Source: Novakomyces olei
Taxonomy: Eukaryota
Length of the DNA: 64,000 bases
Assembly (NCBI GenBank): GCA_016906335.1
Contig: JADEYG010000015.1
Coordinates: 62,001 to 126,000 of the forward strand
Direction of reading: 5' to 3'
Position numbers and translations under genes: made by a program. Each line of letters begins with the position of its first letter. Position 1 is the first letter of the stretch. The notes beneath the pieces were generated by a model. The model saw nothing but the letters and a program-made list of their open reading frames with translations. It was not told where the DNA came from and did not search any database. Positions 3,526-18,217 of the stretch are shown here, piece after piece.

Positions 3526-5391
3526 TCACGAACCGCCAATATTAACCTCTGGAACTTCGTTGTCTGCATTCTTTGGCACAACAATTTGTAACGTGACACC
3601 TGTCTGTGACGCCTGCACGATAATATTTATATTCCCCGTGCTCACAGTTATCGGTGGTGGAGCATTAGTGCCCCTTGACCCCTCTTCGTCATGCTCCTGG
3701 GGCTCAACTCGGACCCCATTTACCTTGCCAATACGCTTCCCATTGTTATCGCGAATAATATTGTCTGCTTTACCACCCTTTTCCTTCTCCTTGCCGGCCT
3801 GGCCTGCCTCGATACCTTCGGCTCCGCCAAACACAGAGCCCACAAGATCATCTGCGGTTCCAACTTTATTTCCATCGGGATCACGGACGACTCCCTCATC
3901 GTCAATAGACATATTTTTGAACTCTGACAGCGCTCCAGGCGCCTCCCCCAAATCTTTACCATCGCGATCAATGACATGTCCCTTGTCGTCGATAGAAAGT
4001 CCATTCAGGCCGCCGGGTTGACGTGCTTTCTCCATCAACTTACGGCCTACATCAGAGTTTTTGGCATAATGTTGGGCAATTCCCATATAACCTTTTGCAC
4101 CGGTGCTCGCTTGTGAAGCCAGGCTCTTTAAAGACCCGCCAATACGTCCAAACCCAAACCCTCCTCCTCCGCTCTGTGCCTTGTCGGTCGTTTCTGCAGC
4201 TTTGCCTTTAGCATCTGAAGCAGAATCAGCGACTTTGCCCTTCACATCGCCAAGAGCACCACCAGCAGTGTCCTCGGAATCACTTTCCTCTTGCTCAGAG
4301 CCTTCAGACTCGGACTCAGACTCGTCATCTTGTTCGTTGTGGCCATTGGTCTTTTCACTATTCCCAAACAGCGAAGGAGCAGCGTTTCTCACCTGCTCGG
4401 GTAAAGATGCACCTCGGCCATAAGCTCGAGCACGTTCAAGAGCGTCTTTCCTTGTCTTTTCCACGTTCTGTTGTACTTCCTCGGGCAGTTTCCCACCGGC
4501 TTGCTTGGCCTTTCCAGCAATATCGTCTCCGCCAGCTCCTCCTGCCACGTCAGAGATTTTGTCTTTGGCTCCACCAGCTGCTCCAGCAGCAGTATCCTTG
4601 GCTCCACCGGCCACTCCAGCAGCAGTATCCTTTGCTCCACCAGCTGCTCCGGCAACTTTATCTTTGGCTCCGCTGGCCAAATCGCCAACACCGCCCAACT
4701 TACCGGTTAATCCTCCTACTGCGTCCCCACCAGCATCAGATTTTGAGCTCTTCTTCTTCTTGCCAGAGCTGCTGGCCGGTGTAGTTCCATTATGATGCTT
4801 CTTCTTTTTCGTTCCCGAGCTCACTTTGCTCGGGGTTTCTTCCGCTCCCTCTGCATCGCCGGCCTTGGGCGTTTTTGGCGTTTTTGGCGTTTTAACTTTG
4901 CCGCTCTTTGCCGAGCGATGATGGTGGTGGTGGCCCTCTTCAGCCTCACCGTTTTTCTTTGGCGATTCGTCCTCCGCTGGTGCCATTACGACCTTGTGAA
5001 AAGCAAAAGCAACTGGGTACGCTAGTGTATGAGCTGTTGCACGAAGGCACCAGATATAGCCGTGCACAAGAGCGACTGGGACAGACGCTCCCAGTGAAAA
5101 GGCCTGTGCTACGTAAGACGGCTGCTGCGATTGGGGAGGCTCTCTCCGCGCCCTTAAGGGTGACGAGAAATCTGGATCAGAGTACGACCTGTCGGACCGT
5201 CTGTCGGGACCTTGTTGCCGAGATTCAGGCTCCGCTGACTCTGCTCGTTTCAACTTGTCTGCGCCAGTAAGAGCAGTGTTGCGTGTACCACTACTGCCGC
5301 TGACTGTATGATTGTCAGGACTCTGGACGGCTCTGCTTCCGCTACTGTCGTCTGCCCCACTAATATATGCGGGTGAGGCGGCTGATGTCAT
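3526..5391 (-). CDS. DUF3659/'LEA-like' Gly/Ala/acidic protein with a C-terminal beta-rich motif
   Basis: Long ORF; the first ATG is at 5391 (an alternative start is at 4986). AGGAKDTAAG repeats, IDDKGHVIDRDGKDLG and IDDEGVVRDPDGNKVG repeats, and a C-terminal INIIVQASQTGVTLQIVVP. Confidence 0.8.
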   Translation of the reverse strand: MTSAASPAYISGADDSSGSRAVQSPDNHTVSGSSGTRNTALTGADKLKRAESAEPESRQQGPDRRSDRSYSDPDFSSPLRARREPPQSQQPSYVAQAFSLGASVPVALVHGYIWCLRATAHTLAYPVAFAFHKVVMAPAEDESPKKNGEAEEGHHHHHRSAKSGKVKTPKTPKTPKAGDAEGAEETPSKVSSGTKKKKHHNGTTPASSSGKKKKSSKSDAGGDAVGGLTGKLGGVGDLASGAKDKVAGAAGGAKDTAAGVAGGAKDTAAGAAGGAKDKISDVAGGAGGDDIAGKAKQAGGKLPEEVQQNVEKTRKDALERARAYGRGASLPEQVRNAAPSLFGNSEKTNGHNEQDDESESESEGSEQEESDSEDTAGGALGDVKGKVADSASDAKGKAAETTDKAQSGGGGFGFGRIGGSLKSLASQASTGAKGYMGIAQHYAKNSDVGRKLMEKARQPGGLNGLSIDDKGHVIDRDGKDLGEAPGALSEFKNMSIDDEGVVRDPDGNKVGTADDLVGSVFGGAEGIEAGQAGKEKEKGGKADNIIRDNNGKRIGKVNGVRVEPQEHDEEGSRGTNAPPPITVSTGNINIIVQASQTGVTLQIVVPKNADNEVPEVNIGGS

Positions 5392-5997
5392 TGCTCTGAT
5401 GTCATATATGGAGATATTACGCGTGCGCGCGACCGCGTTTATATGCACCGATCTCCACAAAAGTAGCCTTTTGCTTGTATTACCGCCTCTTCCGTATGCG
5501 GAAGGCAAGAGAAACTGTAATAATTGGTGCACTATATCTACAATTCGTCAGAAACAGTAACCTGCACGGTAAAACGCGCCGCTGCTGGTATCAAAAGTAA
5601 GATAACGTTTCATATTAGTCTAACAAATCATGTTAGTCTACGAATCATATTAATCTAACAAATCATATTAATCTAACGGATACTTTTGCTACAACGAATA
5701 ATGTAATATTATTTTCCTCACCAGCGCTCACTATACACACAGCGAAAATTTGTCTTTCTCTAATCTTATTTTCCAGATCATCGATCGAATATTCCTAATT
5801 TTAATTTGATTACTTCATTTCTACTGGTCGACAGATTAGGAACTAGCCACCTTTTTCAGTCAGTGTCGCATTAATTTATTTCAGCTTTGCGAATACAATG
5901 CCAATGATGTCATGCATCTCAAGGTATAACTGAGCCGTGGCATCTTCGCACTAGCCATTCTTGTTTGTTTTAGTTCGTCAGTAAACCGACTGCAGAT

Positions 5998-6381
5998 ATG
6001 GCAAATGCAGAGGAAACTCGTCCGGCACGCAAGAAGGGCTCGAAAAAGACCCGCACAAAACAAAAACAAAAACCCGGATCCGATGTCAGTCCCATCGCAA
6101 ATCAGTCTCCGCGAGAAGAGAAGCAAATGATGGCCCAACGGGACCGGCTTGCCGAGAATCATGCGCAGCAAAACGGACGGCAGGACGAGGACGATAATGC
6201 GGAAGAAGAAGAAGAGGACGATGACGATGACGATGGCGGCAAGCAGCCATTGCGTTTACGGCTCGATCTAAATATAGAAGCCGAAGTTCAGCTTAAAGCT
6301 AAACTTCACGGTGATGTGACTCTTAGTATGCTGTGAGTGGTTTTGCCTGTTGTATCCCACACTGACAGTTTTAGTGGATGA
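5998..6381 (+). CDS. Small basic/acidic protein with C-terminal LRLRLDLNIEAEVQLKAKLHGDVTLSML motif
   Basis: ORF 5998-6336. Probable intron 6333-6374 (GTGAGT..CTGAC..TAG) and a 7-nt last exon ending TGA at 6381. Paralogue of 6690-7295. Confidence 0.8.
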
Positions 6382-6689
6382 ATCGCTTGCACAAATCTAC
6401 GATCGGATAATGAGCAGTATCTATTGTAACGAATATTTAATTACGATAATATTTAATTCATAAAAGTAGACAATTGTAGAGCATTCAGGTTTGATAAAAA
6501 TTTGATTCCTAAAGTGACATTGTAAAGACGATTTAATTACGATGATATTTGATTTTAAAAAGATACATTAAAGAATACTAGAGCGATTATCGCCAATTTA
6601 ATCATTTCAATGTCATTAAAATACAGCACTAGATAGGTCTAGTCGATCGTTTTCAGGAGCAGGGCTACACTTCACCGCAGAGATATACA

Positions 6690-7295
6690 TCATCGCCTAG
6701 GCACTTTATAAGTAAGCTGATGCGAAATCAAATAGTAAACAGTAAAAACTTACAGAAGTGACAGCGTTACATCACCATGCAACTTTGCTTTAAGCTCAAC
6801 TTGAACGTCCAGGTTCAAATCGAGACGGAGTGACAAAGGACTGTCGTTCCCTTGCTTTTTCGGCTTGCGTTTTCCGCCCACAGCTTTGCCTGCCGTGTTT
6901 GATACAGTATCTGTTGCCCCACGGACAGTTTCTTTCCCTTGTTTAACGGCACCATCAGCAAGCTGTTTGCCTTGGTTTGCCGTGCTTTCCACTTGCTTGG
7001 GCGCACTTTGCACTAATTGCCCAACTGTATCTTCATCCTCTCCTTCTTCTTGTTCCTCCTCTTCGTCGTCGTCATCGTCCTCCTCTTCGTCATCTTCTTC
7101 TTCTTCGTCGTCGTCATCTTCGTCGTCTTCTTCCTCACTTTCGTCATCCTCCTCCTCCTCCTCTTCGTCAGAGTTCTCTAGTCCACTATCAGGCTCCGGC
7201 TGCTGTGCATTTTTCCCATTTTTTGGTTTTGGCTTTGTCGCCTGTTGTGCGTGCTTGGGTCGTGAGGGCGATGGCTTTGTTGCAGTTTCTGCCAT
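6690..7295 (-). CDS. Acidic protein with C-terminal LSLRLDLNLDVQVELKAKLHGDVTLSLL motif
   Basis: ORF 6750-7295 with a long D/E tract. Probable intron 6753-6697 (GTAAGT..TAG) at the same codon position as in the paralogue, then a 7-nt exon. Confidence 0.8.
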
Positions 7296-8508
7296 GATTG
7301 TTTATTGCGGGAGCTGTCACTCGTCCAGATTCGTGCGCCTGTTATATATTCGTGTCCTTAATATAGACTTTTGCGCAACTGACATTTTCTCCTGACATTT
7401 TTTCGGGAACTCTTTGCTGTTGATTAACCCAAACAGGATTGAGGCTCATTTGAGTCTGAGTATTATGTCATAGCCCACTTTGTAATAATTTCCGCGGTCA
7501 TCGACATCTCTCTTCTATTACTTTTAAACATTTCACACCCGGAAAGGGTTTAGGAAGTTGTTTGCTGCACCCGTGTATCTATTGGTATGTAAATTTGTAT
7601 TATGAAATAAAGGCTTTGGTTAAATTTAGCGATTAGTGTAAAGCGGGTCTCAGGTTTAGTGAATGAACGGGGTGGAGCGTGCGATCTCTGCTGCATGCGG
7701 ATCCAATTGACTATGTTTTTATGTTTTACAGTGTAGTGTTTCGCTAAAGATACTTGGCGGTAGTTAATGTACTCACGTCATTTCGTAATACCAGCCAGCA
7801 ATATAGCCGTGAAGGGAAGAGCGCGTGACTTGGTACTTATTCATTTGGTACTCTATACGAATGTCCCACACAGTGAATGTCCATTACCAGATACAGTCTG
7901 TTGCTCACAGCTCATACTGCTCACAAACTATATTCGTATCCAGCGGTAAGAGTAGATGCGTTGTATACAACTATCGGCATCTATGTTTCAGACTTACTGT
8001 CCTCGCATTTTGTCGATTGTGCTCTGAAACGGCAATGTACTCCCTTGATTGTGCCTATTTCAAAGCGGCAATATACTTTTACAGACACTGCCTCGCCAGT
8101 CTGCTGTCGCAACTCCCTATTAATTTTGTACGTACCCAAAAAAGCCGGGGAGCTTCTCTAATATCAGTCCCGTCCGTATCAGGAAATGATCAAACATTCG
8201 AAAAAGAAAAATAACGTCACTGATCGCGCCCGCGCAATAATCGACACGATAGCATATTAACAAGAAATATGAATAAACAAGAAATGAATAAACAAAAAAT
8301 AATAAAAGATGTGTGGAGACGTCTTGATGAAGACGTCATTGCTAAGCCGTAAACGTCAGAGGTTCGTTACACTTGTGTATAAGAAGAGGCGTCCTGAAAC
8401 CGAGTTTGGGGTTGTATTGATTTGAAAAGAGCAAAAGTCAACAAAAGGCTTTTATTTCTTTCATATAGTACTTTTGAGCAGGGCGAATAATACACACGAC
8501 AATTCCGA

Positions 8509-10731
8509 ATGGTTCGAGAGCACCACGGCAGTGAGACGTCACCGTCAGCGGCTAAAGCTGCTGGCGAAGCGGGAACGCCTACTCGGCAAGGCGGAGCCAA
8601 GGCTCAAGAACAATTAAACGGCAAGAAGAATGTGGAAGACGTTGCCGAAAACGAGAGTGACTTGAACGGACAAGAACAGCCTGGGGAAGAAGAAGAATCT
8701 GGAGAAGAAGAATCTGGTGACGAAGAATCTGGAGAAGAAGAGTCTGGAGACGAAGAGTCTGGAGAAGAAGAGTCTGGAGACGAAGAGTCTGGCGACGAAG
8801 AGTCTGAAGGCTCTGAGGAAGAATCTGGCGAGTCTGGAGACGAAACTGAACAAGACGAACAGGATCCAGAAAAGACTGCTCAAGAGGCGACAGAGGGCAA
8901 GGCCAACAAGAAAGGCCTTCTTGGATCAGTTGGTGATGTGGCTTCAAAGGGTGGAGACCTTGTCCAAGGAGCTAAAGGCGTCGCTGGAGGGCTCAACGGA
9001 AAGGCTGATGGAAACGAGGGAGATCAAGACGGCAATGTGCTGCAAGACACTGTTGGCAAAGCTGGAGACGCCGTGAATGATGTCACCGGCACTGCAACAT
9101 CGGCAGTTGGATCAGTCACAGATTTGGTGGGCAAAAAGATCGGCAAAGACGGCAATGTCCTGGACGACGCCGGCAATGTTATCGGCCGTCTTTCCGACGG
9201 AGATCTTAAACGTGCAGTCGGCAAGACGATCGATGACAATGGCAATGTTTTGGACAAGAAGGGCAAAGTAATTGCCAGCGTGGAAGCTGTCTCTGGTGAC
9301 CTTTTCTCCCAAATTGTGGGCCGTAAGGCATCAAAAGACGGAAAGATTTACGACGACGAAGGAAACGCCATTGCTCGAGTTACTGGTGTCGATCCAAAAC
9401 GTGTGGCTGGCAAAAAAGTCGACGAGGACGGTGACGTTGTTGATAAAAATGGCGAAAAACTTGGATCTGTCGAGCTGCTCCCACAAATCCCGGAAGAATT
9501 ACGTAGCCAGGTAGCCGGTGTAGTTGATGAAAGCAATGGAGCCATTCTCGACAGCCGGGGCAACGAAATTGGTAAAGTCAAAGAGGAGGATATTAAGAAG
9601 TTTGCTGGTAAATTTGCAACTCCAGATGGATCGATCATTGACACGAACGGTCTGCCATTGGGCCAGGCTTTGGAATTGAATGGTCGCAATTTGGTTGAAG
9701 AGGCGAACAAGAAAATTCACGCTCTAGCGGGTAAGGAGATCGAAGAAGACGGAACGATTTTGGGTAAGAAGGGAGAGGTAATTGGCCGAGTGAGTGAAGG
9801 CGAGTTGGATGAACTTGTCGGCAAAAAGGTATCTGAAGACGGAACAATAAAGGACGACAAGGGCAATGTCCTTGGATCGGTTGAAAAGGTTTCGCCTGCT
9901 GCACTTAAAGATACTCTTAAAAACCGTATAAACAAGAAAGGCCAAGTGGTGGATGAAGGCGGAAACGTTATCGGCGAGTTGGTGGAAGGAGAAGCGCGTA
10001 AGCTTAAACTGAAATTGGTAGATGATGATGGAAATGTGGTTGATGAGGATGGCACTATTCTTGGAGCTGCGCGATACTACGAAGACGAAACGGAGGAAGA
10101 AAAAGCAGAGAAGCTCAAAAAGAAAGAGGAGCAAGATTCCTTGGAACACGATCGCAAGATTGCAGTGCAGATGGCGGAGATTATTGATGCATCCTTGGAG
10201 AAGGTCAAACCTATTCTGAACAAAATAACGGAAAATTTGAAGGAGGCTGATTCTCAAGGTGAAGACTGCGATCAAAAGAAACTCGTGCAAAACGTGAAGC
10301 CCCTGATCGAACAAGGTGGTCAAATCTTGCAGGAGACCAACGGTGCAATCCGGGCTCTTGATCCTCAGGGCCGGGTTACTCAGGCTGCTCGTTCCCGAGC
10401 CAAGTCGCGTAGTGCTACTAGTGAAGAATATTATTTGGCCGATCTGCTCAAGGAGCTAACAGAGAACGTGCAAAAGACCATTGACGATGCTAAGGTTAAG
10501 CTGGAAAATTTACCTGAGGCCAAACGTGACCTCGGTCCGCTTTTGAATTTGTTATCTGATCCGTTGTTCCAGATTCTTGCTGCCGTTGGTCTGCTTTTGA
10601 GCGGTGTACTGGGTCTTGTTGGCAATCTGTTGAACGGACTCGGACTTGGCGGGATTGTGCGCAGTGTTTTGGGAAGCTTGGGACTTTCTGATGTGCTTGA
10701 AAATCTCGGAATTGACAAGATCTTGGGTTGA
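8509..10731 (+). CDS. DUF3659-repeat ('LEA domain') protein with a helical C-terminal domain and hydrophobic Gly/Leu tail
   Basis: Intronless 740-aa ORF. About 10 repeats of G(K/R)xVDxxGxVxDxxGxxIG; C-terminal PLFQILAAVGLLLSGVLGLVGNLLNGLGLGG. Confidence 0.88.
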   Translation: MVREHHGSETSPSAAKAAGEAGTPTRQGGAKAQEQLNGKKNVEDVAENESDLNGQEQPGEEEESGEEESGDEESGEEESGDEESGEEESGDEESGDEESEGSEEESGESGDETEQDEQDPEKTAQEATEGKANKKGLLGSVGDVASKGGDLVQGAKGVAGGLNGKADGNEGDQDGNVLQDTVGKAGDAVNDVTGTATSAVGSVTDLVGKKIGKDGNVLDDAGNVIGRLSDGDLKRAVGKTIDDNGNVLDKKGKVIASVEAVSGDLFSQIVGRKASKDGKIYDDEGNAIARVTGVDPKRVAGKKVDEDGDVVDKNGEKLGSVELLPQIPEELRSQVAGVVDESNGAILDSRGNEIGKVKEEDIKKFAGKFATPDGSIIDTNGLPLGQALELNGRNLVEEANKKIHALAGKEIEEDGTILGKKGEVIGRVSEGELDELVGKKVSEDGTIKDDKGNVLGSVEKVSPAALKDTLKNRINKKGQVVDEGGNVIGELVEGEARKLKLKLVDDDGNVVDEDGTILGAARYYEDETEEEKAEKLKKKEEQDSLEHDRKIAVQMAEIIDASLEKVKPILNKITENLKEADSQGEDCDQKKLVQNVKPLIEQGGQILQETNGAIRALDPQGRVTQAARSRAKSRSATSEEYYLADLLKELTENVQKTIDDAKVKLENLPEAKRDLGPLLNLLSDPLFQILAAVGLLLSGVLGLVGNLLNGLGLGGIVRSVLGSLGLSDVLENLGIDKILG
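8689..8842 (+). repeat. 15-bp coding minisatellite encoding (E/D)EESG repeats
   Basis: GAAGA(A/G)TCTGG(A/T/C)GA(A/C) is repeated about 8-9 times in frame. Confidence 0.9.
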
Positions 10732-12179: not shown

Positions 12180-13280
12180 TTAGAACGTATGTTTGTTGCG
12201 CTGATGTGCCGGAAGAGCTTGGCGCACCTTTGGCAGCACGTAGCGACCATAATCGATGGCGTCATTAAGATTATCGTACCCCCGAATAGAAATCAACTCG
12301 GCCCCAATATCAACGTAGTCTAACAGCGAAGCAGTAATGGTCTCTGGAGAGCCGACAAGAGCGGTAGAAGCTCCTCTGGCATTCGTAGCAGTTACGGTCG
12401 GATACCACAAAGCCCGGTCGTGTACTTCCCCACGCGCTGCAATCTCCAAAAGTCTTTGGGAGCCCACGTTTTGCGGGGGCGGAGCATTGGCCGGCACTTT
12501 ATCCTGTCCAATAGCACGATGGTGCTGCAACAGTTCGAGTGTGCGATGAGCCTTTTGCCACGCCAGCTCGTCCGTCTCGGCAACTATTGGCCGGAAAGTG
12601 ACCCAAATACGGGGCCGGTCGGTTCGGCCTGCCCTTTTTGCTTCTGCAAAAACTTGGTCAATCTGCGCACGTGTTTCCTTCAAAGGTTCCCCCCACAATC
12701 CAAAGATATCGGCTAATGCCCCACCAATGCGGTACGCATCGGCAGAAGACCCGCCCACGGATACGGGAATACGAGTGCCATTGATGGGCCTTACTCGATT
12801 GCTAAACTGCTTGAACTGATAATATTTGCCCTCCCAATCAAAGGGCTCTGGAGACTTCCAAGCGCGTTTCAGTATACGAATGTACTCCTCCAGGCGCTCG
12901 TATCTTTCTTCCTTTGTCAGAAAGTCACCCTCTTTTGCCTGCTCTGCATCACTCCCACCAGCTATGAAATGTACGACTGCCCGTCCACGGCTGAGCTGGT
13001 CTAGTGTGGCCAGAGCCTTTGCTGCGACTGTGGGGTAAAGCGTGTTTGGACGCAGGGCAATTATAATTTTAAGGTTGCGAGTGGCTGCGGCGATTGTAGC
13101 CCCTACAGTAAAGGGGTCAAAGGAGGAAGAGTCGTAAGGAACAAGGGTATAATTGAACTCGAAATCGTCCAGCGACCGAGCGTACCTCTCGAGATAATCG
13201 GGGTCGATCCCGGCGCCGGGTATCGGGCTGATTTCCGTTGAAGCGTTGGGGAAAGTAAGGCTGATAAATTCAACCGGCAT
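12180..13280 (-). CDS. Luciferase-like (LLM) flavin-dependent monooxygenase, SsuD/alkanesulfonate-monooxygenase-like
   Basis: Intronless. Starts MPVEFISL; motifs IALRPNTLYPTVAAKALATLDQLSRGRAVVHFIAGG, FDWEGKYY, VGGSS and ALVGSPETI. Confidence 0.9.
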   Translation of the reverse strand: MPVEFISLTFPNASTEISPIPGAGIDPDYLERYARSLDDFEFNYTLVPYDSSSFDPFTVGATIAAATRNLKIIIALRPNTLYPTVAAKALATLDQLSRGRAVVHFIAGGSDAEQAKEGDFLTKEERYERLEEYIRILKRAWKSPEPFDWEGKYYQFKQFSNRVRPINGTRIPVSVGGSSADAYRIGGALADIFGLWGEPLKETRAQIDQVFAEAKRAGRTDRPRIWVTFRPIVAETDELAWQKAHRTLELLQHHRAIGQDKVPANAPPPQNVGSQRLLEIAARGEVHDRALWYPTVTATNARGASTALVGSPETITASLLDYVDIGAELISIRGYDNLNDAIDYGRYVLPKVRQALPAHQRNKHTF

Positions 13281-14285
13281 CCTCGGCGATCTGTCAAATA
13301 ATTGCCTCTTTGCTTTGCTCGTTGCGAGCCACATTGACGGCGGCTTTTATACTGCCCCAAGGACGCCGCCCACGTAAGGGCCCCACATAACGTAGGGCTA
13401 TCACGCGAGGTGACGAATAAATCACAAAACAATATTATATTAATATAATATCTTATATATATGTTGCAATATGAATCTTGTTGATACGAATCTTGTTGAT
13501 ACGAATCTTGTTGAAATATGAATCTAATATTCCTTCAATAAAACTAGTCAATTATTCAGTTCCTGATTCAGATACGTATCTTGTGTGGGCTTATTCTGAA
13601 TTTGCTCTACTGGATTTCTGTTTAATACGGAGCAATATAGTTCAAATGATCCTTAAACCTTTGAGGTTTCAGCTAAAGGTAAAGTCCGGCTTATTTAATT
13701 ATTCTACCTTAAGAACTCTGCCTCAATATAAAGGTACAACAAATCTGTTATTCCCTCATATGACCTTTCTATACTCTCCTCGTAATTCAGATACATCTAT
13801 CTTGCGTGCCAGTTCTTGACTATAGTTTTACTCAATCTCCTCTGATAATTATAGTCTAATTCAAACATTCGAACACAAGAACATTTTCTGGACTATATTT
13901 CCAACAATATAGTAGTGGCGAAGTCGTATAGGAATGTGTATGCCATAGATCATGTTTCTAATGGCGGATGTATTATGTACTTAAGTGGTATATTCTGCGA
14001 TTTATCATGCATGTGTCAGACTACTAGAATGTAAGTCAGAGTGGTAGAATTGTTACACAGTTAAGCAAAAGAATATATTCTGTTGTCGAGAGAACAAATG
14101 ATACGTCTGTAGTGTATAAACATCTCATATTTAAGTCCAATATTTGACAAAATTGTGTTTTGAGCCGAATTGTTTCCTTGACCTCCACAAATGCTCAGGC
14201 ATCTTGTTTATTTCTACTTTCTCGACTGCTAAAAAATCTAAACTTGAACTGGTGCGTGTTGATTAGAAGCTTAAGAGGCACGATG

Positions 14286-15417
14286 CTATGGCTCAACAGT
14301 ATCACCAAACGTTTGTGCCATCCCTGCTTCAGGGTACCGGGTACCCACAATATTCGCATTCTCCGCAAACTGCCGTAACTCTTCAAGTTCCTGATCAGAT
14401 AACTTTATAAAAGCCGACTCGATATTCTCTTGCACGCGTGCAGGTTTAATACTGCCGGGAATCGGCACTGCGCCCTGGGCCATAACCCAAGCAAGAGCGG
14501 TTTGGCCCGGGGTAATACCCCGTCTTTCCGCAATGGCACTGACTTTATTTACCAGCTCGAGATTCTTACTGAAATTCTCCGGCTGAAAACGCGGCGCACG
14601 ACGACGGAAATCGTCTGCCGGAAAATCTTGGGGAGACCTGTATTGGCCCGTAAGGAATCCACGGCCCAGAGGCGAGTAAGCCACAAGAGTTATTCCGAGC
14701 TCCCGGCAGGTATCAAGGACACCTTTGCTCTCAATATCCAATGTCATTAGAGAGTATTCCATTTGTACAGCGCTGACAGGATGAACCTTGTGTGCTCTGC
14801 GGATAGTTTCAGCACTGCACTCGGAAAGGCCATAGTGGCGAATTTTACCCTCTTCAATCAGCTGCTTCATAGCCTGAGCGCTGTGCTCAATAGGTACTGC
14901 CTTCTCTATGCGATGCATATAATACAAATCAATCGTATCGATGCCTAATCGCTCCAAGCTTCCCTGGCAGCATTTATGGATATACTCGGGACGGTTATCT
15001 GCTGTAAAGTCCATTTTGGCTCCACATTTAGTAGCGAGAAAAATCTCTTTACGTCGACCCGTCTCCCGGAACCATTTTCCAATCAGCTGTTCGTTTGTAT
15101 GAGGACCGTACAGGTCACTAGTGTCCCAAAATGTACAGCCTAGATCAGCTACATGCGATAGCGTTTTCAGATTGGCTGTATGCCGGTCAGTTTTGTTCAA
15201 ACAGAACTTCTTCGTTTCTTTTTTCTTTTTATTTTTATTTTTTTATTTTTTTCAATTTGTTTAATTTAGTCCCATATTCTCTTGTCTTACCCTCATCGTC
15301 TCCTCGGCCGCTGTAGAACGCCGACATGCCCATAGCACCGTACCCGATAGCAGTAATACGAGCATGAGAGGGCGAGTTGCCCAGTTCTACCGTTGGAAAA
15401 ACTGTATTGACAAGCAT
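14286..15417 (-). CDS. Aldo-keto reductase (AKR13/YakC-like), 2 exons
   Basis: Motifs IGYGAMGMSAFY, WDTSDLYG, FLATK, IDLYYMHR, GLSE, AYSPLGRG and PIPG. Intron 15290-15176. Confidence 0.92.
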
Positions 15418-16157
15418 TTTGTTTGCCGGTTGGTCGATATATCTCGATGTATATTTGCTGAGTCGTCTCCTGCCGCTAAGAAGGATGGAGCTTTAGTGCC
15501 TTTTATAAGCGTTCTTGCTGTGACGTTCCGGCCAACTTATATATTACGTACCCCGTATTCCTACAGTGTTACTTGAAATAATTATCGCCGATTGAGTTTC
15601 GGCTCGGAGATTGCGCGTGCTATTAATAATATTGGGAAGGCATTTTTATCTAACGAGGCAGTTTCATCATTTCGCGAATGCTCGAGGAGAGAACCTTAAC
15701 CTTTCGTCTTCTTACCGTTGTAGCCACTCCTATAATTCAGAATATTCGGCATTCAACCACCAGTCTTCGTCTTTGATTTTTCATGTGCAATTTTATTATG
15801 CAATTTCATTCAAATCACTATTGGCCCGCTAGACTTAATTGGACAAACAGGCTGTAGACCCAAAGACTGACTAGTTATACTTTTACCGAGTTCTCTTGGG
15901 AATCCATCCTTGCTTTGAGGCATGCGTTATCAGTGATGCTTTTATTGTTTATCTATTTTTAAAAATTTTAATTTTTACGAATTAAAACGGAGATAAAACC
16001 AAAAAACAACACGACAAACAAACTGGCAGATGTACGGCACGCAAACAATCTATCGGCACAGTTTTCACTGCAAAGCGATACATAAAACTTTATTTATATT
16101 ATAAAATATAACATTTGTTTTCTATGCGTATCTACGCAATCATCGACGTTGCATTCC

Positions 16158-18217
<2,060 letters not shown>

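Follow-up and report, generated by a model that had tools for sequence, protein, structure and literature searches.

Abundant hydrophilic proteins, whose mode of action is mostly obscure, help the spores and resting cells of fungi to withstand drying and heat. A group of four adjacent genes of Novakomyces olei raises the question of whether proteins of this kind may be produced as a set, and of what the members of such a set would do. The quartet is located at positions 3526-10731 of the 64,000-nucleotide stretch of DNA analysed here (the window; contig JADEYG010000015.1, positions 62,001 to 126,000), and is composed of two large genes of the DUF3659 family (P0001 and P0004) and of two small genes (P0002 and P0003) whose products end in a related tail of 26 residues. 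The reading that we prefer, and to which we give a probability of roughly 0.35, is that these are co-regulated stress or dormancy proteins of lipid-droplet or membrane surfaces, on which the tail would act as a specific fastening element of the beta type. A preliminary description of this DNA, made from the sequence alone, had placed four genes here in two divergent pairs, and all four open reading frames (ORFs) agree with it in position and strand. The features are as follows, with coordinates counted within the window:

3526-5391 (-): P0001, 621 aa, intact ORF, divergent DUF3659 paralogue
5392-5997 (no strand): P0001/P0002 intergenic region, 606 bases, putative bidirectional promoter region
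5998-6336 (+): P0002, 112 aa, intact ORF, with the 26-residue tail at 6256-6333
6333-6374 (+): putative terminal intron of P0002, 42 nt, with a GTGAGT start and AG at 6373-6374
6750-7295 (-): P0003, 181 aa, intact ORF, with the 26-residue tail at 6753-6830
7296-8508 (no strand): P0003/P0004 intergenic region, 1213 bases, putative bidirectional promoter region
8509-10731 (+): P0004, 740 aa, intact ORF, DUF3659 and DUF6987

The gene order is mirror-symmetric, DUF3659(-) / tail(+) / tail(-) / DUF3659(+), and consists of two head-to-head pairs, with P0002 and P0003 standing tail-to-tail and 413 bases apart. All four proteins are strongly hydrophilic, with a grand average of hydropathy (GRAVY) of -0.66 to -1.55, and have Gly-rich (G/A/T/V/K/D) segments and acidic tracts in common. 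The non-metabolic, hydrophilic character first ascribed to the quartet is upheld, and its members are related in pairs, P0001 to P0004 and P0002 to P0003. None of the four exact protein sequences (0/4) is present in a collection of 15 billion proteins.

The DUF3659 proteins P0004 and P0001

Membership of the DUF3659 family (PF12396) is firm for P0004, which scores 240.2 bits over five stretches (Pfam; gathering score 24.8) and carries at least nine units of the DxxGxVxDxxGxxIG type, as recognised by regular expression at about 9121-10071. It is marginal for P0001, which reaches 27.3 bits against the same gathering score in a single stretch (residues 461-515), and P0002 and P0003 gave no Pfam match to PF12396. 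The DxxGxVxDxxGxxIG (DUF3659-like) repeats noticed beforehand in two of the genes are thus confirmed by Pfam, narrowly in the case of P0001. P0004 also contains a practically complete DUF6987 domain (PF22485; 265.8 bits, gathering score 26), which spans residues 540-737 (10126-10719) and profile positions 2-200 of 200; P0001 has no Pfam match to DUF6987 and is not a member of that family. The N-terminus of P0004 is formed by acidic ESG repeats followed by a Gly-rich segment, and its end by a Gly/Leu-rich hydrophobic stretch (residues 677-721, Kyte-Doolittle values up to 2.35). The closest clusters in the Atlas are annotated 'DUF3659/DUF6987 domain-containing protein' and come mostly from Ascomycota.

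A single-sequence AlphaFold2 model of P0004 residues 190-740 was poor overall, with a mean predicted local distance difference test score (pLDDT) of 58.1; it displays long helices over DUF6987 at pLDDT 70-92 and hairpins over the repeats, mostly at pLDDT <50. A Foldseek comparison of this model with the PDB gave no match at E<=0.001, the best being the helical bundle of the syntaxin Sso2 (E 0.01) along with generic bundles, which we treat as carrying no information. At the sequence level, P0004 matched VHL in the PDB through its acidic tract alone.

The N-terminal half of P0001 comprises a disordered start, a moderately hydrophobic segment (residues 97-116) and a region of His/Lys-rich and Gly/Ala/Lys/Asp repeats, and its C-terminal half an acidic Ser/Glu tract, two to three DxxGxVxDxxGxxIG units (residues 461-558) and a hydrophobic, beta-like element at about residues 584-603. 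BLASTP aligns it with P0004 at 30% identity over 227 aa (E 1e-5), with the acidic tract, the Gly-rich segment and the hairpin units in colinear order. Because of this colinear alignment and the narrow DUF3659 score, without DUF6987, we regard P0001 as a divergent paralogue of P0004. Its residues 400-621 found no relative at E<=0.01 in a 5.8-billion word-indexed search (2655 candidates of 341-1087 aa). At the DNA level, 23 nt at 4289-4311 are 96% complementary to 8800-8822; this stretch lies in Ser/Glu codons of the acidic tracts, and is the sole near-exact DNA remnant that P0001 and P0004 have in common.

P0004 belongs to known families of unknown function that have one published link to lipid droplets. 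LdrD, a DUF3659 protein of Aspergillus oryzae and one of ten 'lipid droplet regulating' proteins, co-localises with Nile red or BODIPY when followed by green fluorescent protein; deletion of ldrD falls in the group with more and smaller droplets, and its conserved part is the C-terminal region, which is said to hold amphipathic helices (bioRxiv 10.1101/2022.11.24.517872). P0004 shares PF12396 with LdrD and has predicted C-terminal DUF6987 helices and a hydrophobic end, which may correspond to the conserved part of LdrD; it may be the counterpart of LdrD or of another DUF3659 protein of A. oryzae. The earlier statement that these proteins have no demonstrated function is outdated for the DUF3659 family in view of LdrD, while the membrane or lipid anchor proposed for the 740-aa protein fits the picture of LdrD given in that preprint.

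All four proteins also recall late embryogenesis abundant (LEA) proteins and hydrophilins, as they are hydrophilic, Gly-rich, of low complexity and probably disordered, with Gly/Ala/Thr/Lys/Asp segments resembling LEA repeats. None of P0001-P0004 matched a LEA family profile in Pfam at E<=1. Hydrophilins are characterised by a Gly content above 6% and high hydrophilicity; set against these thresholds, P0003 has 7.2% Gly and P0002 5.4%, and P0001 and P0004 have 13-14% but a milder GRAVY (-0.79 and -0.66, respectively). In Aspergillus, the transcript of a 'LEA domain protein' (Afu3g11550 / An02g07350 / AO090003000710) is listed among those enriched in dormant conidia (PMC4869263). This Aspergillus protein may belong to the DUF3659 family.

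A further likeness is to the beta-flower family, which is built of hairpin repeats with a [DNEQ]xxG tip and shares a clan with the lipid-binding Tubby/scramblase barrels (PMC10584680). P0004 has predicted short beta-hairpins, repeated and with this motif at the tip, and reaches the gathering score of the five-fold beta-flower PF21785 (Bflower_2), if marginally (38.8 bits, gathering score 38). It differs in that the model of its repeats is mostly of low confidence and that PF21784 is not reached (14.5 vs 25).

The tail of P0002 and P0003 and its family

Of the last 33 residues, 23 are common to P0002 and P0003 (E 1e-14), which have no similarity elsewhere, so that the C-terminal motif which the preliminary description had noted in the two small paralogues is well founded. 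Both are disordered proteins with a basic N-terminus. In P0002 this is followed by an acidic tract and the tail (GRAVY -1.54), and in P0003 by an Asp/Glu tract (about 50 residues), a segment rich in Gly/Thr/Val and the tail (D+E 57 of 181 residues, pI 4.1, GRAVY -1.55). In the tails of both proteins, polar and non-polar residues alternate without a break over 26 residues, and the hydrophobic moment over this length is 2.9-3.0 at the beta period and about 0.3 at the helical one. Of the hydrophobic end elements described earlier, the strictly alternating tails and the Gly/Leu-rich end of P0004 hold good, whereas that of P0001 alternates only weakly (best 18-residue beta moment 1.7, vs 3.6 for the tails); beta patterning in three genes is consequently a loose description, since no motif is common to all three. 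The P0001 element was also considered as a relative of the tails and rejected, its alignment being no better than that of shuffled sequences.

The family motif, as defined here, reads L-R-L-D-L-N-L-[DE]-...-K-A-x-x-H-G-D-x-[TE]-L-x-L-L and stands 0-2 residues from the C-terminus, after a disordered region. P0002 and P0003 both carry this LRLDLN-tail motif, and P0002 also aligns with the family alignments A1 and A2. As a full-length P0003 query was swamped by the acidic tract (one spurious match among 8000 candidates), residues 90-181 were used instead, and these gave eight relatives, including Schizophyllum (Basidiomycota) and Zychaea mexicana (Mucoromycota), all with the same terminal motif. 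An exhaustive comparison of a profile of the eight with 1.84 billion cluster representatives yielded 852 matches at E<=1e-3 (counted as clusters at 50% identity), of which 353 reach E<=1e-10. Members with a named source are proteins of Agaricus bisporus, Moniliophthora, Neoarthrinium, Zalerion, Verticillium and Fusarium, all of them annotated 'hypothetical'. The family is thus found in Ascomycota, Basidiomycota and Mucoromycota, and is not confined to ascomycetes.

No Pfam family is common to 92 aligned members, the family profile found nothing in the PDB (best E 0.35), and the tail of P0003 had no usable match in the Atlas. A literature search on the LRLDLN motif, or on VDAG_07277, AGABI2DRAFT_181760, FMUND_7795 and BD626DRAFT_487973, found nothing relevant. 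Judged by sequence, the tail defines a large pan-fungal family without a name or a Pfam or PDB match, and this family is the most novel element of the locus.

The motif expression was matched by 112 of the 153 proteins examined, mostly at the extreme end of the protein (0-1 residue before the C-terminus in 81 of the 112); the 41 negatives are mostly variants with Glu in place of Thr in the motif, or long gene models. Across 151 tails, Asn6, Ala15, Gly19 and Asp20 are conserved at 100%, Arg2 and His18 at 99%, Asp4 at 95% and Lys14 at 92%. These tails come from representatives at 50% identity, and the regular expression by which they were collected confines some positions to small sets of residues, but leaves Arg2, Lys14 and His18 free. 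The hydrophobic positions are conserved as a class and several polar-face positions as identities, and the polar face is as conserved as the hydrophobic one. That the polar face keeps the very same residues from phylum to phylum points to a specific fold or a specific partner, and speaks against mere amphipathicity.

A metagenome scan gave five further loci. Three of these (L002, L003 and L004, a near-copy of L003) have long flanks, and they amount to two independent loci. L002 contains one tail-family gene, and L003 and L004 contain two each, head-to-head. In L003, which comes from a second organism, these two paralogues lie side by side at 7855-8361 (-) and about 9359-10084 (+), with the same arrangement in L004, and, as in the window, one of them has a Gly/Thr/Val-rich segment before the tail and the other does not. 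Judging from this resemblance, the two-paralogue state of the tail family may be old.

In P0002 the putative terminal intron begins at the third base of the last Leu codon and has a CTGAC branch-like site at 6362-6366. Splicing would add one Gly to the protein; if unspliced, the stop codon lies within the 5' splice site. A canonical 5' splice-site hexamer (GTGAGT, GTAAGT or GTATGT) starts at this same codon position in six of the seven distinct tail-family genes examined, namely at 6333 (+) and 6750-6755 (-) in the window, 10084 in L002, 10084 (+) and 7855 (-) in L003 and 650 in L005, with L001 as the single exception. Left unspliced, GTGAGT and GTAAGT give an immediate stop, and GTATGT lets reading continue; the way in which the terminal hexamer or intron was read would account for the 25 of 112 database proteins that are one residue longer, and for those with long 'YV...' extensions. 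Placed so close to the stop codon, a conserved intron could serve as a regulatory device. The terminal intron is probably also, together with the low-complexity N-termini, the cause of the unstable annotation of tail-family genes. In Verticillium, for instance, the models of one locus (P0143, P0177 and P0169) disagree, some joining a 200-aa protein to the tail-family protein and others not; the 200-aa protein has an N-terminal hydrophobic segment, and the models are of 200, 255, 257 and 401 aa.

Probable duplication history and putative promoter regions

The mirror layout, with a paralogous outer pair and a paralogous inner pair, is most simply explained by an inverted duplication of one head-to-head pair, and this is the most likely origin of the quartet. 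As no DNA-level inverted repeat is left across it apart from the acidic coding tracts, the duplication would be old. It would also follow that a DUF3659 gene and a tail gene had shared a promoter region beforehand.

One independent case brings the two families together again. FMUND_7795 of Fusarium mundagurra (P0034, 486 aa), the only such case among 27 long tail-family members scanned, begins with a tail-family part, to which DUF3659 repeats (61.7 bits) are joined. The repeats align to the DUF3659 part of P0001 (E 2e-5); the similarity between the C-terminus of FMUND_7795 and the terminal element of P0001 is weak, with 2.7% of shuffles equalling the score. Whether FMUND_7795 is a true fusion or a model that merged two neighbours, a tail gene and a DUF3659 gene are, according to this gene model, adjacent on one strand in Fusarium.

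In the layout of the quartet, each small gene shares a putative bidirectional promoter region with a DUF3659 gene. The P0001/P0002 region contains two TGATGTCA sites resembling the cAMP response element (CRE), at 5397 and 5905, and the P0003/P0004 region four ACGTCA and three ATGTCA half-sites. ATGTCA is the top enriched 6-mer of the three cluster intergenic regions (7 vs 0.81 expected, P 2e-5; 1211 k-mers were compared with a background in which coding DNA is included, and the CRE-like motif was chosen post hoc). Upstream of the L002 tail gene there are three half-sites (0.6 expected, P 0.02), and TGATGTCA is present there. These sites are a post hoc hint, drawn from sequence, of control by a basic leucine zipper (bZIP) factor of the ATF/CREB type, and the four genes are plausibly co-regulated. 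In Aspergillus a factor of this type, AtfA, governs conidial dormancy genes (PMC4869263).

The start of P0001 (5383-5405, minus strand) lies within a short tandem duplication of TGATGTCAT, which places a further ATG ahead of the main start codon, with five codons and then a stop immediately before it. This possible small upstream ORF overlaps a CRE-like site.

Proposed role and alternative explanations

In the proposed mechanism, each pair would probably be transcribed from its common bidirectional promoter within a stress or dormancy programme. P0004 would be a protein of the LdrD type, held on lipid droplets or the endoplasmic reticulum by its DUF6987 helices and its Gly/Leu end, and P0001 a lineage-specific, degenerate copy that lost DUF6987 and carries other hydrophobic elements. 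P0002 and P0003 would supply long, highly charged disordered chains, each fastened to the surface by its tail. The tail would fold only in company, with itself or with a partner surface, into about three short strands with Leu/Val/Ile on one face and the fixed Arg/Asp/Asn/Lys/His/Asp on the other, and the four proteins may be in physical contact, as they would be in the co-assembly through beta-hairpin tails put forward in the preliminary description. This reading draws on the mirror layout, the pairwise paralogy, the combination of DUF3659 and DUF6987 in P0004 and the droplet data for LdrD, and likewise on the PF21785 score of P0004, the conservation and beta moment of the tail, FMUND_7795 and the CRE-like sites. 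The proposed mode of action, an anchor on a neutral-lipid surface with the hydrophilic part in the cytosol, would be like that of oleosins, perilipins and apolipoprotein B, to which the quartet has no relation in sequence or fold. Amphipathic beta-strands on lipid are known above all from apolipoprotein B.

Several observations weigh against this reading. The DUF3659 paralogue AO090005000959 is reported not to be on droplets (bioRxiv 10.1101/2022.11.24.517872). In an AlphaFold2 monomer model of the tail (92 sequences), which was weak (mean pLDDT 63.4, predicted template modelling score 0.22), the tail has no strands, and a helix is placed in the Gly/Thr/Val-rich segment; a strandless monomer is to be expected if the tail folds in company, yet this is no positive evidence for such folding. 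The polar residues are nearly invariant, which speaks against a simple, non-specific binding to lipid. The choice of promoter motif was made after inspection, and half-sites are not enriched in the promoter of the L003 pair (1 vs 0.55 expected), where the lone half-site is the only copy of TGATGTCA in 20 kb. Linkage, too, is missing at the two independent metagenome loci: no DUF3659 or DUF6987 gene was found near the L002 tail gene (10 kb upstream, 4 kb downstream) or within 10 kb on each side in L003/L004, by tblastn with P0001 and P0004 at E<=1e-3 and by Pfam on 44 of 84 ORFs of >=100 aa, the 44 being those left after overlapping shorter frames were dropped. Finally, Verticillium gene models merge the tail-family gene with a different, unrelated upstream gene. 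Of the neighbourhood of such genes that the preliminary description had stated for filamentous ascomycetes, one independent case (FMUND_7795) stands, whereas L002 and L003/L004 are without linkage; the DUF3659-tail linkage is recurrent, not general, and the earlier interpretation is upheld in part.

Almost as probable as the preferred reading is a purely historical neighbourhood, in which an inverted duplication would have left side by side four hydrophilic genes whose DUF3659 and tail products work independently and form no functional unit. Two of the three independent outside situations are unlinked (L002; L003/L004), in L003 each tail paralogue has the other as its partner rather than a DUF3659 gene, and the Verticillium tail gene has another upstream neighbour. 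The two families may also differ in distribution, the tail reaching Basidiomycota and Mucoromycota and DUF3659 being termed scattered (bioRxiv 10.1101/2022.11.24.517872). Set against this, both tail genes of the window are head-to-head with a DUF3659 gene, the Fusarium gene model again sets both kinds adjacent on one strand, and Gly-rich segments and acidic tracts recur in all four proteins.

An unlikely alternative leaves lipid out altogether and makes the tail a self-assembly module, whose alternating strands would pair into a defined oligomer or a reversible cross-beta sheet, render the disordered chains multivalent and so produce a gel or condensate that protects the cytoplasm in drying. 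Designed alternating peptides of such a type form beta-sheet hydrogels. The unbroken alternation over 26 residues would suit such a module, the near-invariant polar face is as expected for specific packing, and the monomer model is unfolded, with the remainder of each protein disordered and highly charged; but no solved structure matches the tail, which moreover lacks the Gln/Asn richness typical of fungal prion domains.

A bolder version of the surface reading, which we consider distinctly improbable, takes the tail as an undescribed pan-fungal amphipathic beta module with a fixed polar face that would form a defined oligomer on lipid droplets or together with DUF3659 beta-flower proteins, and so give rise to a new class of coats made of small, disordered 'brush' proteins. 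These coats would protect storage organelles or the cytoplasm of dormant cells, and the quartet would be an ancestral two-component system present in duplicate.

Very unlikely, lastly, is a non-structural tail acting as a recognition peptide, for instance in sorting, import or turnover, for some conserved machinery of fungi: its place 0-1 residue from the C-terminus in 81 of 112 motif-matching proteins and the constancy of its residues in different fungal phyla, in proteins that otherwise diverge without constraint, would suit a signal, but 26 conserved residues are long for a linear one, the final residues misfit the peroxisomal SKL-type consensus, and no candidate receptor was identified.

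The locus joins the DUF3659/DUF6987 family, with its single published lipid-droplet phenotype, to a large and nameless family of small proteins. The near residue-for-residue conservation of the tail from Mucoromycota to Dikarya implies a specific, testable interaction, and its length of 26 residues suits both peptide biophysics and clean deletion or point mutants. If the surface-fastening reading is right about lipid droplets, a beta-type anchor would take its place beside the helices and hairpins that prevail in that field; if it is wrong, the tail family still merits a Pfam entry.

Rfam and tRNA scans of the whole window gave no match. The genes around the quartet are ordinary eukaryotic housekeeping and redox genes, including Sec7, APC2 and RCC1, which marks the window as part of a fungal chromosome. 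Just downstream of the quartet, at 12180-17406 (-), three redox genes stand in tandem, coding for a luciferase-like monooxygenase, an aldo-keto reductase and a pyridine-nucleotide disulphide oxidoreductase with a dimerisation domain.

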